A stretch of 64,000 bases of DNA from Escherichia coli (GTDB lineage Bacteria > Pseudomonadota > Gammaproteobacteria > Enterobacterales > Enterobacteriaceae), in assembly GCF_044324875.1 (NCBI RefSeq), contig NZ_CP172187.1; one strand, given 5' to 3'. The notes under the pieces were generated by a model. That model saw nothing but the letters and a program-made list of their open reading frames with translations, did no database searches and had not been told where the DNA came from. Within the stretch, counting starts at the first letter, position 1; every line of letters starts with the position of its first letter. Below, one piece after another: positions 2,343 to 51,347 of this stretch. The translations under genes were made by a program, and so were the position numbers.

Positions 2343-3284
2343 GTGAGGAGAATTCCCATGCCAAACTGGTGCTCAAATCGTATGTATTTTTCTGGTGAAC
2401 CAGCACAGATCGCTGAGATTAAACGACTGGCCAGCGGTGCAGTCACACCGCTTTATCGCCGCGCCACAGATGAAGGTATTCAGCTGTTTCTGGCCGGTAG
2501 TGCCGGACTTCTGCAGACCACTGAAGATGTGCGGTTTGAACCATGCCCCGGACTGACGGCTGCCGGACGTGGTGTTGTATCGCCGGAGAATATCGCGTTC
2601 ACCCGCTGGCTGACACACCTGCAGAACGGTGTGCTACTGGATGAAAAAAACTGCCTGATGCTGCATGAACTCTGGCTGCAGAGTGGTACTGGCCAGCGTC
2701 GCTGGGAAGGATTACCGGATGAGGTCAGGGAAAGCATCACCGTGCATTTCACCGCCAAAAGAGGTAACTGGTGTGGCTTCTGGAGTAACGAGGATGTATC
2801 GGTGTGGTGGAACCGTCTGTGTGACAATGTACTGCCGGAAAAAACCATGCCGTTTGACCTGCTGACGGTTCTGCCCACCCGCCTGGATGTTGAAGTGAAT
2901 GGCTTTAACGGTGGTGTTCTGAACGGTGTTCCTTCTGCGTATCACTGGTATACGGAACAGTATGGCGTGAAGTGGCCTGTGGGGTATGAGGTGAATATCA
3001 GCAGTCAGGGAGACAACTTCATTCAGGTTGATTTCGACACGCCGTGGTGTCAGCCGGAAAGCGACGTTATTGCAGAATTAAGCCGCCGTTTCAGTTGCAC
3101 ACTGGAGCACTGGTATGCCGAGCAGGGCTGCAATTTCTGTGGCTGGCAGCGATATGAGCGTGGAGAGCTTGTTGATGTCCTGTGGGGGGAATTGGAATGG
3201 TCTTCCCCGACAGATGACGATGAGCTGCCGGAAGTCACCGGACCTGCGTGGATTGTCGACAAGGTGGCGCATTACGGTGGATGA
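2343..3284 (+). CDS. Hypothetical leading-region protein (313 aa; Cys/Trp-rich), function unknown
   Basis: Long ORF immediately downstream of repeat A copy 1; alternative start ATG at 2358 (MPNWCS...). No motif I can assign. Confidence 0.55.
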   Translation: MRRIPMPNWCSNRMYFSGEPAQIAEIKRLASGAVTPLYRRATDEGIQLFLAGSAGLLQTTEDVRFEPCPGLTAAGRGVVSPENIAFTRWLTHLQNGVLLDEKNCLMLHELWLQSGTGQRRWEGLPDEVRESITVHFTAKRGNWCGFWSNEDVSVWWNRLCDNVLPEKTMPFDLLTVLPTRLDVEVNGFNGGVLNGVPSAYHWYTEQYGVKWPVGYEVNISSQGDNFIQVDFDTPWCQPESDVIAELSRRFSCTLEHWYAEQGCNFCGWQRYERGELVDVLWGELEWSSPTDDDELPEVTGPAWIVDKVAHYGG

Positions 3285-3289
3285 ATTCT

Positions 3290-3650
3290 GACGGAGACGG
3301 GCGGGCAACCGCCCGTTTCTTTTCCGACAAAGGATGTCGCCGTGCTCCTCTTTTTACTGCGCCGGCTGACGCGGCGCGGCATAAACGCTGCCTGTGGTCA
3401 GTGTCCCGCGTCCGGCGGGCACGGGACGGGCGCTTTTACCGCTCCCGGCTGGCACCGGTGACAGTGTACGCCAGCCCGTCGCCCTTTTCTGATGAACGCC
3501 CTTCAAGCCGCTTTCGCGGCATAGCCTTGCCGTCAAAAAGACGACGGCTGCGGTATTCCACGGTCGGCCTGACCCGTTACCGGACGCGGTGAACAGCCCA
3601 CAGGCAGCGGGGAACGGGCACCACAGGGGTGCCCTCCCGGTGCCTTCTGT
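3290..3650. repeat. Leading-region repeat family A, copy 2
   Basis: Direct repeat of 1985-2340 with a few substitutions; ends at the RBS (AAGGAGG) of the methyltransferase gene at 3668. Confidence 0.8.
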
Positions 3651-3667
3651 AAGAGAAGGAGGCTTTT

Positions 3668-7107: not shown

Positions 7108-7295
7108 TACAGGGGCAGGCGGTGGAGGCCGCCTGTCAGCCCGCGCGAAAACCCCTGGCAGGCTGACGCCTGCCGGAAGGGAAGCGGGCCACGCTGGCGC
7201 GTCGCCCGTTACCCTTCCCGTCTGTGATGTGTCTGACTCAGGAGTGTTTCTTTCTTATGTTGCGGAACTGTTCCTGATGTTGTTGTTGTTCCTTT

Positions 7296-7895
7296 ATCTG
7301 CTGCTCTGATTCTGACTACTGCAGTGTTGTTCTGTCTGCCGGGCGCACCTTCGGCTCCCGGCTGCCTGGCGGCATCCGGTCGTCAGGCCCGACTCCGACA
7401 GGCAGCTGCTGGCGCACCTGCCAGTCTCCGCCGAACCCGCTGGCGCGGCTTCGGGCTGCCGCTACGGTCCGATGCGTGAAAACCCCGGGCTTGCAGCGAC
7501 CGTTCTGGTCGCGCCGCCTCTGTCGCGCCGTGGCCTGCGCTCCAGGCATCCCGGCAAAAAGACGCCGGGATGTAAGGCGCAACGCCGTTTCGCAAACCGC
7601 GCTTCACGTCGTTGCTGCGGGTCCCTGCTCATTGCCTGCCGGGTGCCACACACCCGTATGAGTCCCTGTCGCCGGGGGCATAGACAGCCACAACCTGCCG
7701 CACTGACTGTCCAGGGTAAATGAACAGCCCACAAAATTTTTTACCCAAAACCCGGTAAAAAATTTTGCGTTCTGCCCAGGACAGGTGCGTCAGGCCGTGG
7801 CAGTGATGCCCCTTGCGGCGAAGGTTCTCAAACGGGTGAAGTTCATACCACAGGGAATACAGCAGCAGGTTCCCGCGAAACGTCAAAACCGCGGC
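7296..7895. repeat. Leading-region repeat family B, copy 1 (~600 bp, GC-rich); candidate Frpo/ssi-like single-strand promoter
   Basis: Shares ...CTGATTCTGACTACTGCAGTGTTGTTCTGTCTGCCGGGCGCACCTTCGGCTCCCGGCTGCC... through ...CGCGGCTCCCGAAACTCAAC with copies at 10651-11280 and 18720-19340. Confidence 0.8.
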
Positions 7896-8148
7896 TCCCG
7901 AAACTCAACGGGTGATGTTCTTTAAAAATCAGGATTTATTTCAGGCTCCGGCAATACGCATTTATGTGTTCTGTCAGTCATCCGGCTGGCAGGTAATGAG
8001 AACGCAGGAACAGAAGGAGGAAAACACCGGAGAACGTCAGACGCAGATATGAAAAAAGCAGGCCGGGGAGGACCTGCTTAATCCACACCGCAAAAACTGT
8101 TCGAGCAGTTTCTGCGGTTCCATTCAACAGTCATAAGGAGTTTCATTT

Positions 8149-8379
8149 ATGACGGTAAGTATTGTTTCACCTTCCGCAGCGGCTGTAAAGCCCCGCCGTC
8201 ATCCCCGTTTCAGACGCGAAGACATCCCCGCGCCGGAAATTGACCCCGTGCTGAAAGCCTTCGGGCGACACATAGCCCGGAGTTTTCACCGGGGGCGTGG
8301 TGTACACATCCCCGCCATGAAAAACACGGCCTTCGGGCAGGTGCTCCGCACACTCGAACTGAAACGCGCTTTTAACTGA
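8149..8379 (+). CDS. Hypothetical small basic protein (76 aa)
   Basis: ORF downstream of repeat B copy 1 with RBS AGGAG. Confidence 0.4.
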   Translation: MTVSIVSPSAAAVKPRRHPRFRREDIPAPEIDPVLKAFGRHIARSFHRGRGVHIPAMKNTAFGQVLRTLELKRAFN

Positions 8380-10647: not shown

Positions 10648-10650
10648 TTC

Positions 10651-11280
10651 TTTTTCCTGCTGCTCTGATTCTGACTACTGCAGTGTTGTTCTGTCTGCCG
10701 GGCGCACCTTCGGCTCCCGGCTGCCTGGCGGCATCCGGTCGTCAGGCCCGACTCCGACAGGCAGCTGCTGGCGCACCTGCCAGTCTCCGCCGAACCCGCT
10801 GGCGCGGTTTCGGGCTGCCGCTACGGTCCGATGCGTGAAAACCCGGCTTGCAGCGACCGTTCCGGTCGCGCCGCCCCTGTCGCGCCGTGACCTGCGCTCC
10901 AGGCATCCCGGCAAAAAGACGCCGGGATGTAAGGCGCAACGCCGTTTCGCAAACCGCGCTTCACGTCGTTGCGGCGGGTCCCTGCCCGTTGTTGTGTCCG
11001 GTGCCATTCACCTGTTTAAGCCCCTGTCGCCGGGGGCTGATACAGCCACAACCTGCCGCACTGACTGTCCAGGGTAAATGAACAGCCCACAAAATTTTTT
11101 ACCCAAAACCCGGTAAAAAATTTTGCGTTCTGCCCAGGACAGGTGCGTCAGGCCGTGGCAGTGATGCCCCATGCGGCGAAGGTTCTCAAACAGGTGATGG
11201 TGAATACCGGAGGGAACAAAGAGCAGGTCCCCGCAAAACGTCAAAACCGCGGCTCCCGAAACTCAACAGATGATGGGGGC
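10651..11280. repeat. Leading-region repeat family B, copy 2, directly upstream of ssb
   Basis: Direct sequence identity with copies 1 and 3; the 3' end ...CGAAACTCAACAGATGATGGGGGCTGAAAAC is shared exactly with copy 3. Confidence 0.8.
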
Positions 11281-11308
11281 TGAAAACATCAACAGAAGGA
11301 GACACATC

Positions 11309-11347
11309 ATGGCAGTTCGTGGCATTAACAAGGTCATTCTTGTCGGT
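11309..11347 (+). CDS. ssb: Plasmid single-stranded DNA-binding protein, exon 1 (codons 1-13, MAVRGINKVILVG)
   Basis: ATG with RBS AAGGAG; the 13 codons are the canonical SSB N-terminus; the reading frame is interrupted by GTGCG at 11348. Confidence 0.8.
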
Positions 11348-11960
11348 GTGCGCCGTTGAAGCGCGGTGTTTTATGGAGTGTTGCCTGAAAAGCAACATGG
11401 CTTAGTGGTATAGCCATTGCATACTGTGGTTAGCCTTGCTTGGTAACAGGCTCGGAGATCCTGAAAAGGAGAGGTGAACATAGCATCCACAGAAAAGGGT
11501 GGTGAATATGGAAATCGTTATAAGTATCACCATTCAATGCAAGATGTATATGGATAAACTGGGTTTGTTGAAGTCGAGATCTATGTGGGAAACAGGAAAC
11601 CAATAACGCAGAACGATTGAAGCGTTATTCCCGTACTAGCACAAGAAATCCGTCCGACGTTGATTGTGACCACTCTAACGGGCCAGCTATTGATGAAATA
11701 GTTAAACGATCGAAAGACATCCTAAGTACATCGCATCTCCACACCGTGAAACTACGGGACTACCTAAACTGGATTTATACCCAGCATGGTAGCGGAGTCT
11801 CCATAGTACTCAAGGTCGGCCTGTAATGGGTTCCGGCAGTCCGCATTATACGGAAGCAGCAAAGGTATAAATCAACCGGAAGGAAGATGAAAGCCTCACA
11901 GTGCTGCGGGGAAGGGAGACAGTTGTTAGATACATCAATCTCTAAGAGGAGGGTTAGCCA

Positions 11961-13862
11961 ATGCTGCCTGATGAACTTGAGAAAAGATTAGATGGAATTG
12001 AGGATGCTTCAAAAAAAGGGTATCCAGTACGTAATCTATACAAAATTGCGTGTGAGCCCGGACTGTGGCTGCAAGCCTACGTGAATATACGGGCCAATGC
12101 AGGTGCACTGACTCAAGGTGTATCAACAGATACCATTGATGGCTTTTCTATCGAAAGAGCAGAGAAGCTGGCAAAAACATTGCGGAGTAGAGAATACGTA
12201 GCGAAACCTGTACGCAGAGTTCAGATCCCAAAAAAGGACGGAAAAACCAGACCGCTGGGGATTCCAGGTGGAGACGATAAACTGGCGCAAGAAGTAGCAA
12301 GAATTATTCTGGAAAGGGTTTATGAACCAGTATTCTCTGAACACTCTCATGGATTCAGACCAAAACGTTCGTGTGAAACTGCGCTCAGATCTATTCGTCC
12401 AGTCTGGAACGGAGTTAAATGGATCGTGGATGTTGATATCAAAGGTTTCTTTGACAATATCCCCCACAAACTATTGCTGAATACACTGGCAGAGAAAATT
12501 AAGGATAAGAATTTCCTGAAATTAATCGAACAGTGGCTGAAGGCAGGATATGTGGACAATTGGAAATACCATCGCTCATATTCTGGCACGCCACAAGGTG
12601 GGATAATTTCTCCCTTACTGGCAAATATATACCTCGACAAACTGGACCGTTTTGTAGAACAGAATTTAATTCCTGCATATACAAGCGGTACAAAACGAAG
12701 AGCGAATCCAGATATGAACAGGCTGGCCCATAAGATTCATAAACTACGAAAGAAAGTAGACGGTATGGCAACTGATTCTGAATCAGAAAAAGAAGCCATA
12801 AAGAAAGAAATTGAACGACTGCTTGAAGAAAAACGTTCTATACCATCTCAGGTCATGAACGATCCAAACTTCAGGCGTATGTACTATGTTCGATATGCTG
12901 ATGACTTCGTAATCGGTGTCATCGGCTCGAAGAAAGATGCTGAACATATATCAAGACAGGTCAGAAACTTTATTACTACTTCACTGGGATTGGAAGTTAA
13001 TGAAGCAAAGACCAGGATCCGCCATATCTCAGAAGGAGTTAATTTTTTAGGCTATGAAATCAGACAGGCAGATGCAAAGAAATTGCTGAAGCAGAAAATG
13101 CAAGGGCGGCACGCTCTCCGGAGATCCACCACAGGAATTGTGCAGCTCTTCGTTCCTGACAATATAGCCGCTAAATTTTGTCACCAAAAGAAATATGGCT
13201 GTTATGAGAATGTGAAGGCTGTACATCGTTCAAGTCTACAAAATCTCAGTGAAGCTGAAATTGTTCTGACTTTCAACGCGGAAATGCGCGGATTGGCGAA
13301 CTACTACAGTCTGGCGCTGGACATGAAATATAAATTATCAAAATTATATTTCATATGGCAAATAAGCCTTTTTAAGACCCTGGCGAATAAACGACGTAGT
13401 TCAGTGAATAAAGTCGCCAAATCGCTACGGCAAAATAATGGAGATCTGGCTATTACCGTTCAGGCCAAAAATGGATCCCGAAAGATTGAGGTTTTCAAAC
13501 TCAAACATGTCAATCGCAACCGAACAACGATTGTCGATACGGAACCGAGAACCGCACATATCACAACCCGCACAACAGAGATCATGCGTCGATTAGGGGC
13601 AAGGATCTGCGAGTATTGTGCGAAGACTGGGCGCTGCGAAGTACATCATGTCAGAAAGCTAAAAGACCTGAAGAAAGGTCGTAAGGCCGGATATAAACCC
13701 AGCTTGTGGCAACTAATGATGATCGCACGCCGCCGGAAAACGATGATTTTGTGCGCAAGTTGCCACGACAAGTTACATAGCGGAAAACTACCCGATTTGA
13801 GACAGGAAAAGGGAAGAATACTCCTGCAACCACCTGTCTCAAGCGGGGATTCTGCTAAATGA
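11961..13862 (+). CDS. Group II intron-encoded protein: reverse transcriptase, maturase (X) and HNH endonuclease domains
   Basis: 633 aa with RT motifs (LGIPGGDDKLAQE, SHGFRPKRSCETAL, FFDNIPH, GTPQGGIISPLLANIYL, YVRYADDFVIGV) and a C-terminal Cys/His HNH-like cluster (CEYCAKTGRCEVHHV...CASCHDKLH). Confidence 0.9.
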   Translation: MLPDELEKRLDGIEDASKKGYPVRNLYKIACEPGLWLQAYVNIRANAGALTQGVSTDTIDGFSIERAEKLAKTLRSREYVAKPVRRVQIPKKDGKTRPLGIPGGDDKLAQEVARIILERVYEPVFSEHSHGFRPKRSCETALRSIRPVWNGVKWIVDVDIKGFFDNIPHKLLLNTLAEKIKDKNFLKLIEQWLKAGYVDNWKYHRSYSGTPQGGIISPLLANIYLDKLDRFVEQNLIPAYTSGTKRRANPDMNRLAHKIHKLRKKVDGMATDSESEKEAIKKEIERLLEEKRSIPSQVMNDPNFRRMYYVRYADDFVIGVIGSKKDAEHISRQVRNFITTSLGLEVNEAKTRIRHISEGVNFLGYEIRQADAKKLLKQKMQGRHALRRSTTGIVQLFVPDNIAAKFCHQKKYGCYENVKAVHRSSLQNLSEAEIVLTFNAEMRGLANYYSLALDMKYKLSKLYFIWQISLFKTLANKRRSSVNKVAKSLRQNNGDLAITVQAKNGSRKIEVFKLKHVNRNRTTIVDTEPRTAHITTRTTEIMRRLGARICEYCAKTGRCEVHHVRKLKDLKKGRKAGYKPSLWQLMMIARRRKTMILCASCHDKLHSGKLPDLRQEKGRILLQPPVSSGDSAK

Positions 13863-13888
13863 GTTTATCCCCAATAAGCTAGCAATGG

Positions 13889-13926
13889 AGAGCCGTATGC
13901 ACTGAAAGGTGCACGTACGGTTCGGA
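13889..13926 (+). ncRNA. Group II intron domain V (catalytic hairpin)
   Basis: Matches the conserved domain V consensus as I recall it (GAGCCGUAUGC...GCACGUACGGUUC), about 80 nt from the 3' splice site. Confidence 0.7.
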
Positions 13927-14008
13927 GGGGGGGTAACGGTGATCTAACTCAAGATAAGCAGGACATATTCGCCATTTATCTTGAAAGACCACACGTACCC
14001 TACCCTAC

Positions 14009-14497
14009 CGTCTGGGAAAAGATCCGGAAGTCCGTTACATCCCAAACGGGGGCGCAGTGGCAAACCTGCAGGTGGCCACGTCAGAAAGCTGGCGCGACAA
14101 ACAGACGGGGGAGATACGGGAGCAGACAGAATGGCATCGCGTGGTGCTGTTCGGCAAGCTCGCGGAAGTGGCTGGTGAGTATCTGCGCAAGGGCGCGCAG
14201 GTCTACATCGAAGGTCAGCTTCGCACCCGTAGCTGGGAGGATAACGGTATCACCCGTTACGTCACCGAAATTCTTGTTAAGACCACGGGCACCATGCAGA
14301 TGCTGGGACGTGCCGCAGGTACTCAGACTCAGCCGGAAGAGGCGCAACAGTTCAGCGGTCAGCCTCAGCCGGAATCACAGCCGGAACCGAAAAAAGGAGG
14401 CGCGAAAACGAAAGGCCGTGGACGTAAGGCCGCGCAGCCGGAGCCTCAGCAGCCGTCTGAACCCGCGTATGACTTCGATGACGACATTCCGTTCTAA
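14009..14497 (+). CDS. ssb: Plasmid single-stranded DNA-binding protein, exon 2
   Basis: In frame with ORF 14057..14497 ([19 protein letters not shown]...DDDIPF, acidic SSB tail); upstream in-frame codons [17 protein letters not shown] continue the SSB OB-fold. Confidence 0.8.
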
Positions 14498-14510: not shown

Positions 14511-14786
<276 letters not shown>

Positions 14787-14849
14787 GAGAGGTGCCGGAC
14801 GGGAACGCGTCCGGCAGACATACAACCATCCCGGTCAAAGGAGAAATAT

Positions 14850-16807
14850 ATGTCAGTTACAGAGTCTAAGACAAAAACGGAGCGTAAATCCAGCCGTAAA
14901 CCTGCAAAAACGCAGGAAACTGCACTGTCTGCCCTGCTGGCGCAGACGGAGGAAGTGAGCGTGCCGCTGGATTCACTGATTAAATCACCGCTGAATGTGC
15001 GCACGGTGCCGTATTCTGCGGAGTCCGTCAGTGAACTGGCTGATTCCATTAAGGGAGTCGGCCTGCTGCAGAATCTGGTTGTTCATGCCCTGCCAGGTGA
15101 CCGTTACGGTGTCGCCGCAGGTGGTCGCCGACTGGCAGCACTCAACATGCTGGCAGAGCGTGACATCATTCAGGCTGACTGGCCTGTCCGCGTGAAAATT
15201 ATTCCGCAGGAGCTGGCGACGGCTGCATCGATGACCGAGAACGGTCATCGTCGGGATATGCACCCTGCCGAACAGATTGCCGGATTCCGCGCAATGGCGC
15301 AGGAAGGCAAAACACCTGCGCAAATCGGTGATTTGCTGGGCTATTCACCCCGCCATGTCCAGCGAATGCTGAAACTGGCTGACCTTGCGCCTGTCATCCT
15401 CGATGCGCTGGCAGAAGACCGCATCACCACCGAACACTGTCAGGCGCTGGCGCTGGAGAACGACACCGCGCGTCAGGTGCAGGTGTTTGAAGCCGCTGCC
15501 AGTCAGGATGGGGTGGAAAACCGGATGTGCGGGTTATCCGCAACCTGATTACGGAAAGTGAAGTGGCGGTGAAGGACAACACTAAATTTCGCTTTGTGGG
15601 GGCTGATGCTTTCTCGCCTGACGAACTGCGCACCGATTTGTTCAGCGATGACGGGGACGGTTATGTCGACCGCGTGGCGCTCGATGCCGCCCTGCTGGAA
15701 AAACTCCAGGTTGTTGCAGAGTCCCTTCGGGAAGCAGAAGGCTGGGAATGGTGCGCCGGGCGCATGGAGCCAGTCGGTGAGTGCCGTGAGGATGCCGGAA
15801 CATACCGCTGTCTGCCGGAGCCGGAAGCGGTGCTGACGGAGGCGGAAGAAGAACGCCTGAACGAACTGATGACGCGTTACGACGCGCTGGAAAACCAGTG
15901 TGAGGAATCCGACCTGCTGGAAGCAGAAATGAAGCTGATGCGCTGCATGGCGAAGGTCAGAGCGTGGACGCCGGAGATACGTGCCGGAAGCGGTGTGGTG
16001 GTGTCCTGGCGTTATGGCAACGTATGTGTCCAGCGTGGTGTGCAGTTGCGCAGTGAAGATGACGCGACTGACGACGCTGACCGCACGGAACAGGTGCAGG
16101 AGAAAGCGTCAGTGGAGGAAATCAGTCTGCCACTGCTGACGAAAATGTCTTCCGAACGCACGCTGGCAGTCCAGGCGGCACTGATGCAGCAACCGGACAA
16201 ATCCCTGACACTGCTGGCATGGACGCTCTGCCTGAATGTGTTTGGCAGCGGAGCGTACAGTAAACCAGCACAAATCAGCCTGGAATGTAAACATTATTCG
16301 CTGACCAGCGATGCGCCGTCAGGGAAGGAAGGTGCCGCATTCATGGCGCTGATGGCAGAAAAAGCCCGTCTTGCGGCCCTGTTACCGGAGGGATGGTCAC
16401 GGGACATGACGACATTCCTTTCACTCAGTCAGGAGGTGCTGTTATCCCTGCTCAGTTTCTGCACCGCGTGCAGCATCCACGGCGTTCAGACCCGCGAGTG
16501 TGGTCACACGTCACGCAGCCCGCTGGACACGCTGGAGAGCGCCATCGGTTTTCACATGCGCGACTGGTGGCAGCCGACAAAAGCAAACTTCTTCGGACAC
16601 CTGAAAAAGCCGCAGATTATCGCAGCCCTGAATGAGGCAGGACTGTCCGGTGCCGCACGGGACGCGGAGAAGATGAAGAAAGGCGATGCGGCTGAACATG
16701 CAGAGTTCCATATGAAAGACAACCGCTGGGTGCCTGGCTGGATGTGTGCACCACGTCCACAGACGGATACCACTGAACGCACTGATAACCTGGCTGATGC
16801 CGCCTGA
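14850..16807 (+). CDS. ParB-like nuclease-domain protein, apparently split by a frameshift into 14850..15548 and 15527..16807
   Basis: N-terminal part has ParB/Srx-like motifs (LQNLVVHALPGDRYGVAAGGRRLAALN, HTH-like region); the second ORF continues in another frame with a 22-nt overlap. Combined length (~650 aa) is that of intact homologues as I recall them. Confidence 0.6.
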
Positions 16808-16858
16808 TGAACAACCACACCGCCCCGCCGGAGACGGGGCGGCAGCAAGGGAGATACC

Positions 16859-17296
16859 GTGATGAAAACTGAACTGACCCTGAATGTCCTGCAGACCATG
16901 AACGCACAGGAATATGAAGATATCCGTGCTGCGGGAAGCGATATGCGCCGTAATCTCACTCACGAGGTGATGCGTAAAGTGGACGCACCGGCTAACTGGA
17001 TGATGAATGGCGAGTATGGCAGTGAGTTCGGGGGCTTTTTCCCCGTCCAGGTTCGTTTCACGCCAGCCCACGAACGTTTTCACCTGGCGTTATGTTCACC
17101 GGGCGATGTCTCTCAGGTCTGGGTGCTGGTTCTGGTGAATGCCGGTGGTGAGCCGTTTGCGGTGGTTCAGGTGCAGCGGCGGTTTGCACCGGAAGCTGTC
17201 AGCCATTCACTGGCACTGGCGGCGTCACTGGATGCGCAGGGGTACAGCGTTAACGACATCATTCATATCCTGATGGCGGAAGGAGGTCAGGCATGA
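16859..17296 (+). CDS. psiB: PsiB, plasmid SOS-inhibition protein
   Basis: 145 aa matching F-plasmid PsiB nearly end to end from memory ([25 protein letters not shown]...). Confidence 0.9.
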
Positions 17297-18012
17297 GCGC
17301 ACGTTCACAGGCACTGGTTCCTCTCAGCACAGAGCAACAGGCCGCATGGCGGGCGGTGGCGGAGACCGAAAAACGCCGCCATCAGGGTAACACGCTGGCT
17401 GAATATCCGTATGCGGGTGCGTTTTTCCGCTGTCTGAACGGAAGCCGCAGGATATCGCTGTCTGACCTGCGATTTTTCATGCCGTCCCTGACCGCAGAAG
17501 AACTGCACGGCAACCGTCTTCAGTGGCTGTATGCCATCGATGTGCTGATTGAAACACAGGGCGAGGTCTGCCTCCTTCCCCTTCCCGGTGATGCAGCAGA
17601 GCGCTTGTTCCCGTCGGTGCGGTTTCGTGTCAGGGAACGCAGTCGCCATAAATCCGCGCTGGTCATGCAGAAGTACAGCCGCCAGCAGGCGAGGGAGGCA
17701 GAGCAGAAAGCCCGTGCGTACCAGGCGCTGGTCGCTCAGGCTGAAATCGAACTGGCATTCCATTCGCCGGAAACAGTCGGAAGCTGGCATGCACGCTGGA
17801 GTGACCGGGTGGCAGAGCATGACCTGGAAACCCTGTTCTGGCAGTGGGGCGAGCGTTTTCCGTCACTGGCCGGAATGGAACGCTGGCAGTGGCAGGATAT
17901 GCCGTTCTGGCAGGTTATTGCGGAAGCCAGTCTTGCAGCAAGAGAGGCCGGTCACGCTGTCCGTGAGATGGAGCGGTGGATGGTGCCGAACAAACTCCGG
18001 GAGGCAGCGTGA
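17293..18012 (+). CDS. psiA: PsiA
   Basis: 239-aa ORF overlapping psiB by 4 nt in the canonical psiB-psiA arrangement; sequence consistent with F PsiA. Confidence 0.85.
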
Positions 18013-18199
18013 TGCGGCAACAATCACACGGATTTCCCGTGAACGGTCTGAATGAGCGGATTATTTTCAGGGAAAGTGAGTGTGGTCAGCGTGCAGGTAT
18101 ATGGGCTATGATGTGCCCGGCGCTTGAGGCTTTCTGCCTCATGACGTGAAGGTGGTTTGTTGCCGTGTTGTGTGGCAGAAAGAAGATAGCCCCGTAGTA

Positions 18200-18270
18200 A
18201 GTTAATTTTCATTAACCACCACGAGGCATCCCTATGTCTAGTCCACATCAGGATAGCCTCTTACCGCGCT
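18200..18270 (-). ncRNA. sok: Sok-type antisense RNA of the hok/mok/sok locus; approximate position
   Basis: Placed by analogy with type I hok/sok systems, where the antisense overlaps the mok start region; exact ends not determinable by eye. Confidence 0.35.
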
Positions 18271-18446
18271 TTGCGCAAGGAGAAGAAGGCCATGAAACTA
18301 CCACGAAGTTCCCTTGTCTGGTGTGTGTTGATCGTGTGTCTCACACTGTTGATATTCACTTATCTGACACGAAAATCGCTGTGCGAGATTCGTTACAGAG
18401 ACGGACACAGGGAGGTGGCGGCTTTCATGGCTTACGAATCCGGTAA
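18234..18446 (+). CDS. mok: Mok/FlmC-like overlapping reading frame that couples hok translation
   Basis: 70-aa ORF overlapping hok in a different frame. Confidence 0.55.
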
Positions 18447-18450: not shown

Positions 18451-18719
18451 CAACCTGGAGGCGGGCGCAGGCCCGCCTTTTCAGGACTGATGCTGGTCTG
18501 ACTACTGAAGCGCCTTTATAAAGGGGCTGCTGGTTCGCCGGTAGCCCCTTTCTCCTTGCTGATGTTGTACGGGCATGAACAACCTGACTTCAGGAAGGTC
18601 GTTTCCCTTCAGGAACGGGGATGAACGCGCGCCTGCGGCGCCCGTTCTTTTCCCCCGCCTTCTCTGGTTATGGCCTGTCAGAAATCACATCACCTTCCCT
18701 GTGATTATTCTCTTTTTCT

Positions 18720-19340
18720 TCCTGCTCTGATTCTGACTACTGCAGTGTTGTCCTGTCTGCCGGCGCACCTTCGGCTCCCGGCTGCCTGGCGGCATCCGGT
18801 CGTCAGGCCCGACTCCGACAGGCAGCTGCTGGCGCACCTGCCAGTCTCCGCCGAACCCGCTGGCGCGGTTTCGGGCTGTCGCTACGGTCCGATGCGTGAA
18901 AACCCCGGGCTTGCAGCGACCGTTCCGGTCGCGCCGCCTCTGTCGCGCCGTGGCCTGCGCTCCTGGCATCCCGGCAAAAAGACGCCGGGATGTAAGGCGC
19001 AACGCCGTTTCGCAAACCGCGCTTCACGTCGTTGCTGCGGGTCCCTGCCCGTTGTTGTGTCCGGTGCCATTCACCTGTTTAAGCCCCTGTCGCCGGGGGC
19101 TGATACAGCCACAACCTGCCGCACTGACTGTCCAGGGTAAATGAACAGCCCACAAAATTTTTTACCCAAAACCCGGTAAAAAATTTTGCGTTCTGCCCAG
19201 GACAGGTGCGTCAGGCCGTGGCAGTGATGCCCCATGCGGCGAAGGTTCTCAAACAGGTGATGGTGAATACCGGAGGGAACAAAGAGCAGGTCCCCGCAAA
19301 ACGTCAAAACCGCGGCTCCCGAAACTCAACAGATGATGGG
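18720..19340. repeat. Leading-region repeat family B, copy 3
   Basis: Direct identity with copies 1 and 2; ends about 30 nt upstream of the ATG at 19371. Confidence 0.8.
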
Positions 19341-19370
19341 GGCTGAAAACCAGAGAGAGGAGAAAGCTGG

Positions 19371-47915: not shown

Positions 47916-48704
47916 ATGACATCAGACAATATCGCTGAATATGTTGGTGAGAATAATCAATTTACTGAGAAGCCTGTAACTGAATACCCCCCGGTGATAC
48001 AGGATAATACAGTGACCACTAAAGACTATCTGTACAGCAATAATATTGATACTGACCTTTTAGTGGTTATCGGAGGGCTTATTGTTATATTGTTTCTCAT
48101 GATGCTTATCATGTACTTTATTAATTCTCTCAGGCATAAGGAATTAACTGAAATACTGACAAAAATATCTTTTCCTGAAAAATCCGGGAGCAATTCGCTT
48201 AAACCGGAAGCGGTCAGCTGTAATTTGTTGTCCCTGTGTGTGCTGGCACCGGTATTCTGTACACCCAAAAAGCTGGCTGAAGTTTCCAGGGAGATCATCG
48301 TGGCGAGTGCGCAGGAGATTGCATGGACGCCGGGGAGCAGTCGTATTGATGGTCATCAGGGCGAAAATATTACCTGGTCTCTGTCGTCACAGTCTCATGC
48401 CGATAAATACGAGCTCATCAATAAAACGTCCCGTGTTTCTCCTGACAGTGGCCGTTTTTATGAACCGGACACAGTTCTGGATCACCGTGAACGGGTACGC
48501 CTTTTTATTCAGATCCAGTTTCCGCATGGGAGTGACTGGTCTGAAGTATTGCGCCTGACTGACATTGTTGCAGAGAAGGTCTCTTCCGGCAGGACTGCAG
48601 GTGCGTATTCCGCTCTATTCGATCACGGATTGGCATCGAAGTCCGATCAGCGATTCGCATCCATTCGATCAACCGGGAACTTAACTTTTTCTACCGCTTT
48701 TTAA
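47916..48704 (+). CDS. Hypothetical single-pass membrane protein (262 aa) inserted between traT and traD; 3' end runs into the IS terminal repeats
   Basis: ORF-track frame 47850..48704; ATG at 47916; TM helix LLVVIGGLIVILFLMMLIMYFI; the last ~30 codons overlap the IS21-type terminal repeats beginning at about 48602. Confidence 0.5.
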   Translation: MTSDNIAEYVGENNQFTEKPVTEYPPVIQDNTVTTKDYLYSNNIDTDLLVVIGGLIVILFLMMLIMYFINSLRHKELTEILTKISFPEKSGSNSLKPEAVSCNLLSLCVLAPVFCTPKKLAEVSREIIVASAQEIAWTPGSSRIDGHQGENITWSLSSQSHADKYELINKTSRVSPDSGRFYEPDTVLDHRERVRLFIQIQFPHGSDWSEVLRLTDIVAEKVSSGRTAGAYSALFDHGLASKSDQRFASIRSTGNLTFSTAF

Positions 48705-49456
48705 CGCGTTTTTTCGCTGCTTTCCACTACCGGGGGATTTTTCCTCAGTGACTCTCCCTGAAGGACCACTCGGTGTGAGTTATGTACCAGTCTGTCCAGG
48801 ATGGCATCTGCTGTTGTTGGGTTCTCCATCAGACCATGCCATTTATCTACCGGGAACTGGCTTACCACTATCGTGCTGCTTTGTCCGTAACGATCCTCTA
48901 TGAGCTCCAGAAGGTCATTACACTGGGCGTTACTTAACTGTTCCAGCCCCAGATCGTCCAGGATTAGAACCTGTATTTTTTGCAACTGTTTCAGATATTT
49001 CAGCCAGCTGCCATCAACACGTCCCTGAGCCAGTTGTTCCAGTAATCGCCCGGTTCTACAGTACCGGACGCTGTGTTTCTGTCGACATGCCTGTTCGCCC
49101 AGCGCATTGGCTATCCAGCTCTTGCCACATCCTGTCGGACCGGTTATCAGCAGGTTTTTCCTGTGGGTTATGTAGTGGCCGTTCAGCAGTTCTCTCATCT
49201 GTTCAGCCCGCAGACCTCTTGAGGCCGGATAGCGCAGCCCTTCCGGTGTTGCCTGGTATTTCAGGCCGGCATTTTTTCTCAACCGTGCCACACGGCTGTT
49301 TTCCCTGCTCAGAAGCTCGTCATCAACCAGCAGCGTCAGCCTTTCCTCGAACGACAGTTCGTCGTAGGTCTGAGGCGTTTCCCGCTGCCGTATCAGGCTC
49401 CCGGCCATCGCCGGGAGTTTCAGTTGGGTCAGTTTGTTTAACAGGTTATCACTCAT
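48701..49456 (-). CDS. istB: IstB-like AAA+ ATPase transposition helper
   Basis: ORF-track frame 48701..49699; internal start MSDNLL...; Walker A GPTGCGKSW and Walker B LILDDLG. Confidence 0.8.
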   Translation of the reverse strand: MSDNLLNKLTQLKLPAMAGSLIRQRETPQTYDELSFEERLTLLVDDELLSRENSRVARLRKNAGLKYQATPEGLRYPASRGLRAEQMRELLNGHYITHRKNLLITGPTGCGKSWIANALGEQACRQKHSVRYCRTGRLLEQLAQGRVDGSWLKYLKQLQKIQVLILDDLGLEQLSNAQCNDLLELIEDRYGQSSTIVVSQFPVDKWHGLMENPTTADAILDRLVHNSHRVVLQGESLRKNPPVVESSEKTR

Positions 49457-49472
49457 ACTGTTGTTCCTTCTG

Positions 49473-51119
49473 TCAGTGGTAGTAGCCCGGACCACGCAGG
49501 TTTTCATGCTCTGAAGCATATGCCGGATGTTGTTCGCCCTGGCGGGATAATGGAAGCTCCAGGTTCTCCCGATGGTGACGCAGCAGATTGTCGATAAAGC
49601 GTCTGTCAGGGGCGTTATAGTGCAGGGCAACGTAACAGGCCTTTTCCAGCCGTTCCGGGCCGTATTTTTTCTGAAGTGCCAGCAGCCCCAGAACTGCACG
49701 ATAAGCCAGTTCCGGATGGGGTTTTGCCTTCAGCATGGATTCAACCACCCGGCCTGTGGACGGGCCCGTACGTTTTCCCTGCTCGATCAGGCGTTCCGGT
49801 GTCCATGTCCCGTGCTGCCGGTGGCGCTCTGGCATGTGAAGCGGATTGGTTGTGTGTTTATATTCATGTGTGCTGCGCGGATGTTGCGCCACACACTGCC
49901 CCTTGTGCCAGAGCTGTACCACCGACTGCCCCGCCTTCAGTGACAGACGCTGACCGACCAGTTCGTGTGGAACGGAGTACCAGTGACGGGCATATTCAAC
50001 GTGGTAGTCAGGGCCAACCTTCACAGCTTTGTATTCCGTGTATTCATAAGGTGCCAGAGGCAGCGGAGAGAGTGCTGGCGCATCCAGTATGCGGAAGCGT
50101 TCTGCACGGGTTTGATTGCCGTACCCCTTCATTGGCCGGTTATTCATGTCTGTCAGTAACTCCCTAAGGCGCGCATTCAGCGCCCTGAGCGTGTGGAAGG
50201 TTTCATTACGGATGCGGGCAAGAAGCCATCGTTCAACGATGAGGACGCCGTTTTCTGCTTTTGGTTTATCTTTAGGTTTGCGTGGTCGGGCCGGGATGAT
50301 AACCGTGCCATAGTGCTCAGCCAGTGCCTGATAACTGTCGTTGATGACAGGCTCATATCGATCGGCCTTTTTCACTGCGCTTCTGAGGTTATCGGGGATG
50401 AGCAGCTTCGGTACGCCGCCCAGGAAGGTCAGGCAACGGCTGTGGGCATTTAACCATGACATCATGTCCTGACCTTCGCACGCTTCAACGTAGGTATAGT
50501 TGGACGCCCCCATTACGGCCACGAAGATTGCCACGCGGCGTATCTCACCGGTGTCCGGATTAATAACAGGAACCGTAGGACCACAGAAGTCGATAAAAAG
50601 CTTTTCGCCGGCACGATGCTCCTGGCGCATGGAGAGACGTCGCGTTTTTTTCCACTCCCGGTAGCAACGGCAGAAGTGCGAGTATCCCATCGCTTTGTTA
50701 CCCGCCTGTGCCTTGTATTCCATCCACAACAGTTGCCGCGTCACACCTGGTTTTCTCATTTCCGTATCGAAGTACAACATGTCAGGCATTACAAGCTCTG
50801 ATGCAAAGGTGTCTTTGGGCGGAAAAATGAGTTTCTCCAGCGTGTCATGGGATATATCAGCAGGTAATGGCCATGACAGAGAAGAGGCTTTGAAGCGGGC
50901 AAGAACCTCAAAAACGGTTGAGGCGCTGATGTGTAACGTCAGTCCGATACAACGGTTAGTCAGCTTCTTGTCGAACTTGAGCTGAAGGATCTTAAAACAG
51001 GTTTCCATAGTGCTCCTGGATTTTCTCTTTCTGGACATTGACGTCTCCACTGGTTTAAACACGGCAATGGAGACTGTGGTGAAAAGAGTTAATTCCCGGA
51101 GTGACTGGCAGGATGCCAA
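49473..51119 (-). CDS. istA: IstA-like transposase (start uncertain)
   Basis: 548-aa ORF whose 3' end overlaps istB; HTH-like N-terminus; two-gene arrangement diagnostic of the IS21 family. Confidence 0.75.
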   Translation of the reverse strand: MASCQSLRELTLFTTVSIAVFKPVETSMSRKRKSRSTMETCFKILQLKFDKKLTNRCIGLTLHISASTVFEVLARFKASSLSWPLPADISHDTLEKLIFPPKDTFASELVMPDMLYFDTEMRKPGVTRQLLWMEYKAQAGNKAMGYSHFCRCYREWKKTRRLSMRQEHRAGEKLFIDFCGPTVPVINPDTGEIRRVAIFVAVMGASNYTYVEACEGQDMMSWLNAHSRCLTFLGGVPKLLIPDNLRSAVKKADRYEPVINDSYQALAEHYGTVIIPARPRKPKDKPKAENGVLIVERWLLARIRNETFHTLRALNARLRELLTDMNNRPMKGYGNQTRAERFRILDAPALSPLPLAPYEYTEYKAVKVGPDYHVEYARHWYSVPHELVGQRLSLKAGQSVVQLWHKGQCVAQHPRSTHEYKHTTNPLHMPERHRQHGTWTPERLIEQGKRTGPSTGRVVESMLKAKPHPELAYRAVLGLLALQKKYGPERLEKACYVALHYNAPDRRFIDNLLRHHRENLELPLSRQGEQHPAYASEHENLRGPGYYH

Positions 51120-51347
51120 TCAATGATCGGAAGCATGCCAAATCGTGATCGATTGTGATGCCAAACTGTGATCGGAGATGGATGCCAAATCATGATCGAT
51201 TCGAATGCCAAACTGCGATCGATTCAGATGCCATTTTGCAGCAGGCGGGTATCACCACCGGCATACAGGGTACACCTGGTCTGTTTCTGTGAATTAACCC
51301 CACATCATCCTTTTCTGCCCTGTTCCAGATTTTCCCGGAGTTTCATC

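Follow-up and report, generated by a model that had tools for sequence, protein, structure and literature searches.

In plasmid F, the yfjB product appears early and transiently in transconjugants, being expressed from the single-stranded promoter Frpo2, and the operon under Frpo2 is dispensable for conjugation frequency (PMC9849209, from which we also take the description of Frpo2). Deletion of parB2 from pED208 leaves pilus production, transfer and the SOS response unaffected (PMC8406263). A preprint of July 2026 (bioRxiv 10.64898/2026.07.07.736705, PMC13370423) describes the F protein as HerB, whose target is the host chromosome, with no part in plasmid partition, and which lowers the cost of acquiring the plasmid. 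Upon deletion of herB from F, conjugation frequency stays the same, the acquisition cost rises by ~10% and the plasmid loses in multi-cycle competition. The same work divides the protein into D1 (residues 1-136, CTP binding), D2 (137-235, HTH DNA binding), D3 (238-417, a new fold) and D4 (418-652, a new fold that forms the core of the dimer). D1D2 alone is diffuse in the cell, while D3D4 is bound to the nucleoid without forming foci; all domains are required. According to the literature, HerB dimerises via its C-terminal D4 and is loaded onto the host chromosome by means of its 'legs', the CTP-binding and HTH domains. Only experiments with F have demonstrated its early zygotic expression, its nucleoid foci and the lowered acquisition cost. 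Another 2026 preprint ('Coupling DNA processing') was set aside as not relevant, since the ParB in it is a parS/ParB imaging tool.

The window analysed here, a stretch of 64,000 nt from the Escherichia coli contig NZ_CP172187.1, contains two plus-strand open reading frames, 14850..15548 (232 aa, ATG start) and 15527..16807 (426 aa, GTG start). Our ORF listing reproduces the coordinates, the 22-nt overlap and the -1 frame of ORF2 relative to ORF1 that were reported in the first-pass annotation, which had read the two ORFs as a single ParB-like 'nuclease domain' gene, ~650 aa when intact, split by a frameshift. The features of the locus are as follows.

10834..11308, plus strand: Frpo2-type region, upstream of the ssb-yfjA-yfjB-psiB-psiA block
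11309..14497, plus strand: ssb, split after nt 39 by a group II intron (exons 11309-11347 and 14009-14497)
14553..14786, plus strand: yfjA (DUF905), intact
14850..16807, plus strand: yfjB/herB (parB2, yubM) with a 1-nt deletion; the intact gene has 1959 nt and encodes 652 aa
14850..15548, plus strand: ORF1, encoding native residues 1-215 (D1 with the greater part of D2, including the HTH) and 17 foreign residues ahead of the TGA stop
15495..15496, plus strand: frameshift site, from alignment with p135-2 and pTB-nb2
15510..15516, plus strand: Shine-Dalgarno-like GGGGUGG, 9-11 nt upstream of the ORF2 GTG
15527..16807, plus strand: ORF2, GTG start at V227, with a putative product of residues 227-652 (the last part of D2, followed by D3 and by D4 as the dimerisation core)
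16862..17296, plus strand: psiB, intact, 54 nt past the ORF2 stop
17293..18012, plus strand: psiA, intact

A megablast search with 14850-16807 returned at least 5000 matching plasmid records in PLSDB. The top records are 99.9% identical and span 1959 nt against 1958 in the query, with one annotated CDS, 'ParB/RepB/Spo0J family partition protein'. Because these records hold a single CDS of this length, the split is real and the two ORFs represent one known gene; intact homologues are indeed single CDSs of 652 aa, as the earlier reading had supposed. With the one missing C put back, the window protein is 652 aa long and identical to WP_045146531.1, so the match is not due to chance. Compared with F YfjB (WP_000117173.1; ParB2 in pED208), 625 of the 652 residues are identical (96%) without gaps, and R94, E130, R168, R172 and K175 are common to both. 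After repair, homology to F YfjB extends over all four domains (D1 CTP-binding, D2 HTH, D3 and D4). Its place is the leading region: ssb-yfjA and, further upstream, the Frpo2-type region precede it, psiB-psiA follows, and the order ssb, yfjA (DUF905), yfjB, psiB, psiA is that of plasmid F. On the strength of these matches we identify 14850..16807 as yfjB of a plasmid F-type leading region, a gene also called parB2, yubM and recently herB; UniRef names its product YubM. In contrast to the intact frame of F, the window copy is broken at codon 216, and no single uninterrupted frame joins D1-D2 to D3-D4. By descent the window gene thus belongs to the YfjB/HerB family, though in disrupted form.

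The ParB-like call is borne out by ORF1, which matches Pfam ParB_N (PF02195, residues 38-131) and HTH_ParB (PF17762, residues 136-219) with scores above the cut-offs, as well as NCBIfam TIGR00180 (64.4 bits against a cut-off of 58.45). The term 'nuclease domain' is only an old Pfam label, and in the YfjB/HerB family this domain binds CTP (PMC13370423). ORF1 keeps Box II GGRRLAA at 91-97 (including R94), MTENG at 128-132 (including E130 of Box III), and R168, R172 and K175; every residue named in the HerB preprint (PMC13370423) stands at the same number in the window protein. The C-terminal 426 aa encoded by ORF2 match no Pfam family. The canonical ParB/Spo0J/Noc CTPase clamps have a similar N-terminal CTP-binding fold and HTH (PDB 1vz0, 4umk and 7nfu; E = 1e-17 to 1e-11). 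In contrast, the C-terminal 430 aa of the window protein are unrelated to the ParB C-terminal domain, and its gene is flanked by ssb, DUF905 and psiB with no adjacent parA. We therefore rejected a ParB of a canonical ParABS partition system: the ParB_N and HTH domains are present, but the adjacent parA ATPase and the canonical C-terminal dimerisation domain are lacking.

Alignment to intact homologues, which the first-pass annotation had proposed as a way to locate the indel, was carried out with p135-2 (NZ_CP080262, locus L001), and pTB-nb2 (NZ_CP033633, locus L002), whose copy is broken at another site, was aligned as well. The alignment places the lesion at window 15495/15496, in codon 216 of 652, where one C is absent and GCCGCC has become GCCGC; against p135-2, the context changes from GAAGCCGCCTGCCAG to GAAGCCGCTGCCAG. 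Over window 14643-17079, this missing C is the sole difference from p135-2, and it gives rise to the premature stop TGA at 15546-15548. The shift had previously been placed within a GGGG/AAAA-containing stretch (near 15510-15530). However, GGGG at 15510-15513 and AAAA at 15517-15520 are identical in the intact alleles, which rules out either run as the cause of the shift; the missing C sits 15-25 nt upstream of them, in a CC dinucleotide.

Whether the missing C belongs to the plasmid or only to this record was decided by searches of public sequence. A 120-nt query spanning the deletion junction found no exact match among the best 5000 plasmid hits in PLSDB, nor among the 4065 records that it hit in complete E. 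coli RefSeq genomes; the best matches were each 99.2% identical and one base longer. These results at first suggested an indel introduced by sequencing or assembly in this record alone, with an intact gene on the actual plasmid. The lesion is a single-base deletion, as such an error would produce, and the sister assembly (pTB-nb2 and pTB-nb3) shows single-base deletions typical of long-read assemblies. An exact-sequence look-up overturned this reading. The exact 232-aa and 426-aa products are both in the public protein collection and are encoded on eight further contigs, from NCBI drafts (GCA_022972835.1, GCA_022972715.1, GCA_902848135.1 and GCA_902846475.1) and from Logan assemblies of public read runs (ERR2060076, ERR1790084, ERR1622252 and SRR8891666). 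GAAGCCGCTGCCAG is present in all eight, the intact form in none; across the whole overlap, six match the window at 100% identity and the remaining two at 99.6-99.9%, although some of the contigs could share isolates or read sets and so represent fewer than eight independent isolates. In addition, the site is a CC dinucleotide and not a long homopolymer, and the rest of the window has no excess of indels. A private indel is very improbable and, in our view, effectively refuted already, so the earlier suggestion of a sequencing or assembly indel is dropped in favour of a real pseudogene, the possibility that had been listed first.

Because the junction occurs in read-level assemblies of several samples, we take the deletion to be real and inherited; because it is missing from the best 5000 plasmid and 4065 E. 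coli records, the frameshift allele must be rare. It had also been argued that the same junction in related plasmids, as two separate genes, would speak against a broken gene. The junction is indeed shared by relatives, but its carriers represent a single allele, with 99.6-100% identity to the window sequence, and not an ancestral two-gene layout, which argues for one inherited mutation. With the copies near-identical to the intact allele, a single recent origin would fit better than recurrence at a hot spot.

Other parts of the window were inspected for signs of poor assembly. Across window 18826-48608 (29.8 kb), there are 9 substitutions and 2 indels relative to pTB-nb3; each indel is a poly-A run in which pTB-nb3 is one A shorter than the window. 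Residual indel errors are therefore possible in the assembly of this plasmid, a sister of pTB-nb2. The tra genes have the same length in the window and in pTB-nb3. Overlapping ORFs at 48701-51119 on the minus strand, considered as a sign of poor assembly, turned out to be a normal IS21-type istA/istB pair without a frameshift. They belong to an IS21-family element at 48609-51240 (minus strand; istA 49473-51119, istB 48701-49699), which is absent from pTB-nb3 and lies just upstream of traD. Flanks of the contigs L009 and L010 were considered as evidence for a second backbone carrying the allele; the differences are located at the ends of the contigs, and their small number allows no interpretation.

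A real deletion could still be compatible with a full-length protein if programmed -1 ribosomal frameshifting or transcriptional slippage restored the frame. Both frames are open over 58 nt (15491-15548), with the G4 and A4 runs inside this stretch, which would leave room for such an event. However, a scan found no X XXY YYZ slippery heptamer anywhere in the ORF1 frame, and transcriptional slippage needs runs longer than four bases. Nor is the two-frame layout conserved: it is absent from the best ~5000 plasmid homologues, the closest of which have a single CDS. When ORF2 was used as a query, 118 of the 120 best protein clusters were single long proteins, with a length of 652 aa in 113 clusters, 682 aa in four and 651 aa in one, and the other two were fragment clusters. 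Stand-alone homologues of D3-D4 were not found among these 120 clusters, which are all close relatives, distant architectures being beyond the reach of the search. Recoding, already called less likely in the earlier reading, is rejected here, and we put its probability at close to nil. It is also conceivable that the gene is split yet partly functional, with ORF1 and an ORF2 re-initiated at GTG 15527 both being made and retaining some activity, separately or in non-covalent association. The break lies near the end of the ParB-homologous module (HTH_ParB extends to ~222, matches to PDB ParB/Noc structures extend to 200-218, and the D2/D3 limit is at 235/238), and residues 216-226 alone are missing from both ORFs. 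The Shine-Dalgarno-like GGGGUGG pairs with the 16S 3' end at -7.1 kcal/mol, a value that ranks among the best ~8% of random positions in the window, and in F the D3D4 fragment alone is still nucleoid-associated (PMC13370423). Against this, GGGGUGG and the GTG are the same in the intact alleles, so this site did not evolve for ORF2 initiation, and no sign of adaptation to a split gene is seen. Apart from the deletion, the allele matches the intact one at 100% identity and must therefore be very recent, the best protein clusters are overwhelmingly single long proteins, and focus formation in F requires all domains in one chain (PMC13370423). Re-initiation 22 nt backward of a stop is, moreover, generally inefficient. 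ORF2 may or may not be re-initiated at this GTG, but a functional split gene is unlikely.

We conclude that the locus is yfjB (herB/parB2/yubM), a ParB-like leading-region gene of an F-type conjugative plasmid, in which one C has genuinely been lost at codon 216 and the loss has been inherited. Which gene it is, where the lesion lies and that several assemblies share it are results of the comparisons above; that the function is lost and the gene is dispensable in the short term is very probable. On a plasmid that has newly entered a recipient, the gene would be transcribed at once from the single-stranded promoter Frpo2. Translation would then end after 215 native and 17 foreign residues, and the CTP/HTH module would be cut off from D3-D4. 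Since HerB foci need all domains in one chain, as truncation experiments on the F protein indicate, loss of function is the most likely outcome of severing this module from D3-D4. Plasmids would tolerate the knockout, since transfer as such does not depend on the gene, and the allele presumably persists since it is dispensable for transfer in the short term; a separate 1-nt deletion in the pTB-nb2 copy of yfjB supports this tolerance. If ORF2 is untranslated, 1.26 kb of untranslated RNA would precede psiB, and polarity might lower the expression of psiB and psiA.

The finding is of an ordinary kind, a correctly spotted pseudogene. What it usefully adds is the precise position of the lesion, grounds for rejecting both assembly error and recoding, and a link to a newly characterised gene. 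For annotation, the two ORFs should be recorded as one frameshifted yfjB/herB pseudogene, and not as two genes or as a partition protein. A natural knockout circulating on an otherwise transfer-competent F-type plasmid also provides a ready-made field control, and it suggests that, for some time at least, a plasmid lacking YfjB/HerB is able to persist and spread.

The intact allele and the broken one reside on different backbones. The intact WP_045146531.1 is encoded by p135-2, an IncK2/Z plasmid, and by at least 8 other plasmids, mostly from poultry isolates. In comparison, the window allele sits on an IncF backbone, with a tra region that is 99.96% identical to that of the IncFIA plasmid pTB-nb3 (18826-48608). 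While the DNA over 14643-17079 is identical to p135-2 apart from the one C, the flanks (ssb, the 3' half of psiB, and psiA) are only ~92% identical, which indicates that the segment from yfjA through yfjB to the 5' part of psiB is a recombination patch in a mosaic backbone, exchanged between co-circulating poultry E. coli plasmids.

The yfjB pseudogene of pTB-nb2 is the same allele and is likewise broken by a single-base deletion. Its lesion lies elsewhere, however: a T is missing (TT to T) at the equivalent of window 16382, in D4. This deletion is an independent event, or possibly an assembly error in that record. pTB-nb2 is an IncK2/Z plasmid, and PLSDB gives no CDS for yfjB there.

Codon 229 of yfjB is a second recurrent break point. 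In three drafts (GCA_027102455.1, GCA_050020475.1 and GCA_040785885.1) the contig ends exactly at this codon, and a 57-member cluster of 424-aa fragments starts at residue 229. A repeat element inserted here, or a branching of the assembly graph, could account for this.

A broader possibility is that the truncated products form a natural 'split HerB', in which a monomeric CTP/HTH module and a re-initiated, nucleoid-binding D3-D4 dimer, jointly or each alone, keep or change the host-reprogramming activity, or that inactivation of herB is selected in some hosts. Independent breaks (the C deletion in the window, the T deletion in pTB-nb2 and the recurrent contig breaks at codon 229) would hint at selected inactivation. 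We regard this as quite unlikely, and the loss of a gene that is dispensable in the short term remains our preferred reading.

Upstream of yfjB, ssb is interrupted by a group II intron of 2661 bp (11348-14008), inserted in sense orientation at the head of the yfjB operon, with its junctions set by comparison with pTB-nb3. It starts with GTGCG, contains an RT/maturase ORF at 11961-13862 and matches Rfam Intron_gpII at 13888-14008. Three contigs (L005, L006 and L011) carry the same yfjB frameshift with the intron site empty. The intron-in-ssb layout is annotated in pF524-1 and apparently occurs in ST131 IncF plasmids such as pEC958 and pEK499, where the stretch including ltrA is covered.

The Frpo2-type region at 10834..11308 resembles two sites in F: it shares 94% identity with the stretch directly preceding ssb and 89% with the one directly preceding the gene at position 8033 of our F locus (L004), which we take to be ygeA with the Frpo1 region. 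This region overlaps one of three direct repeats of ~630 bp (7286-7917, 10649-11287 and 18705-19350), which are 93-98% identical to each other and each precede a leading-region gene block. The repeat before ssb matches both the F Frpo2 region and the second F site, and the repeats are presumably single-strand promoter regions.

Elsewhere in the window, two RNAs score above the Rfam gathering threshold: a sok antitoxin RNA at 18118-18294 (plus strand), marking a hok/sok or flm locus downstream of psiA, and an AS-pc01 antisense RNA at 8053-8154 (minus strand). A 383-bp direct repeat with 96.6% identity (1971-2352 and 3276-3657) flanks an ORF at 2343-3284.
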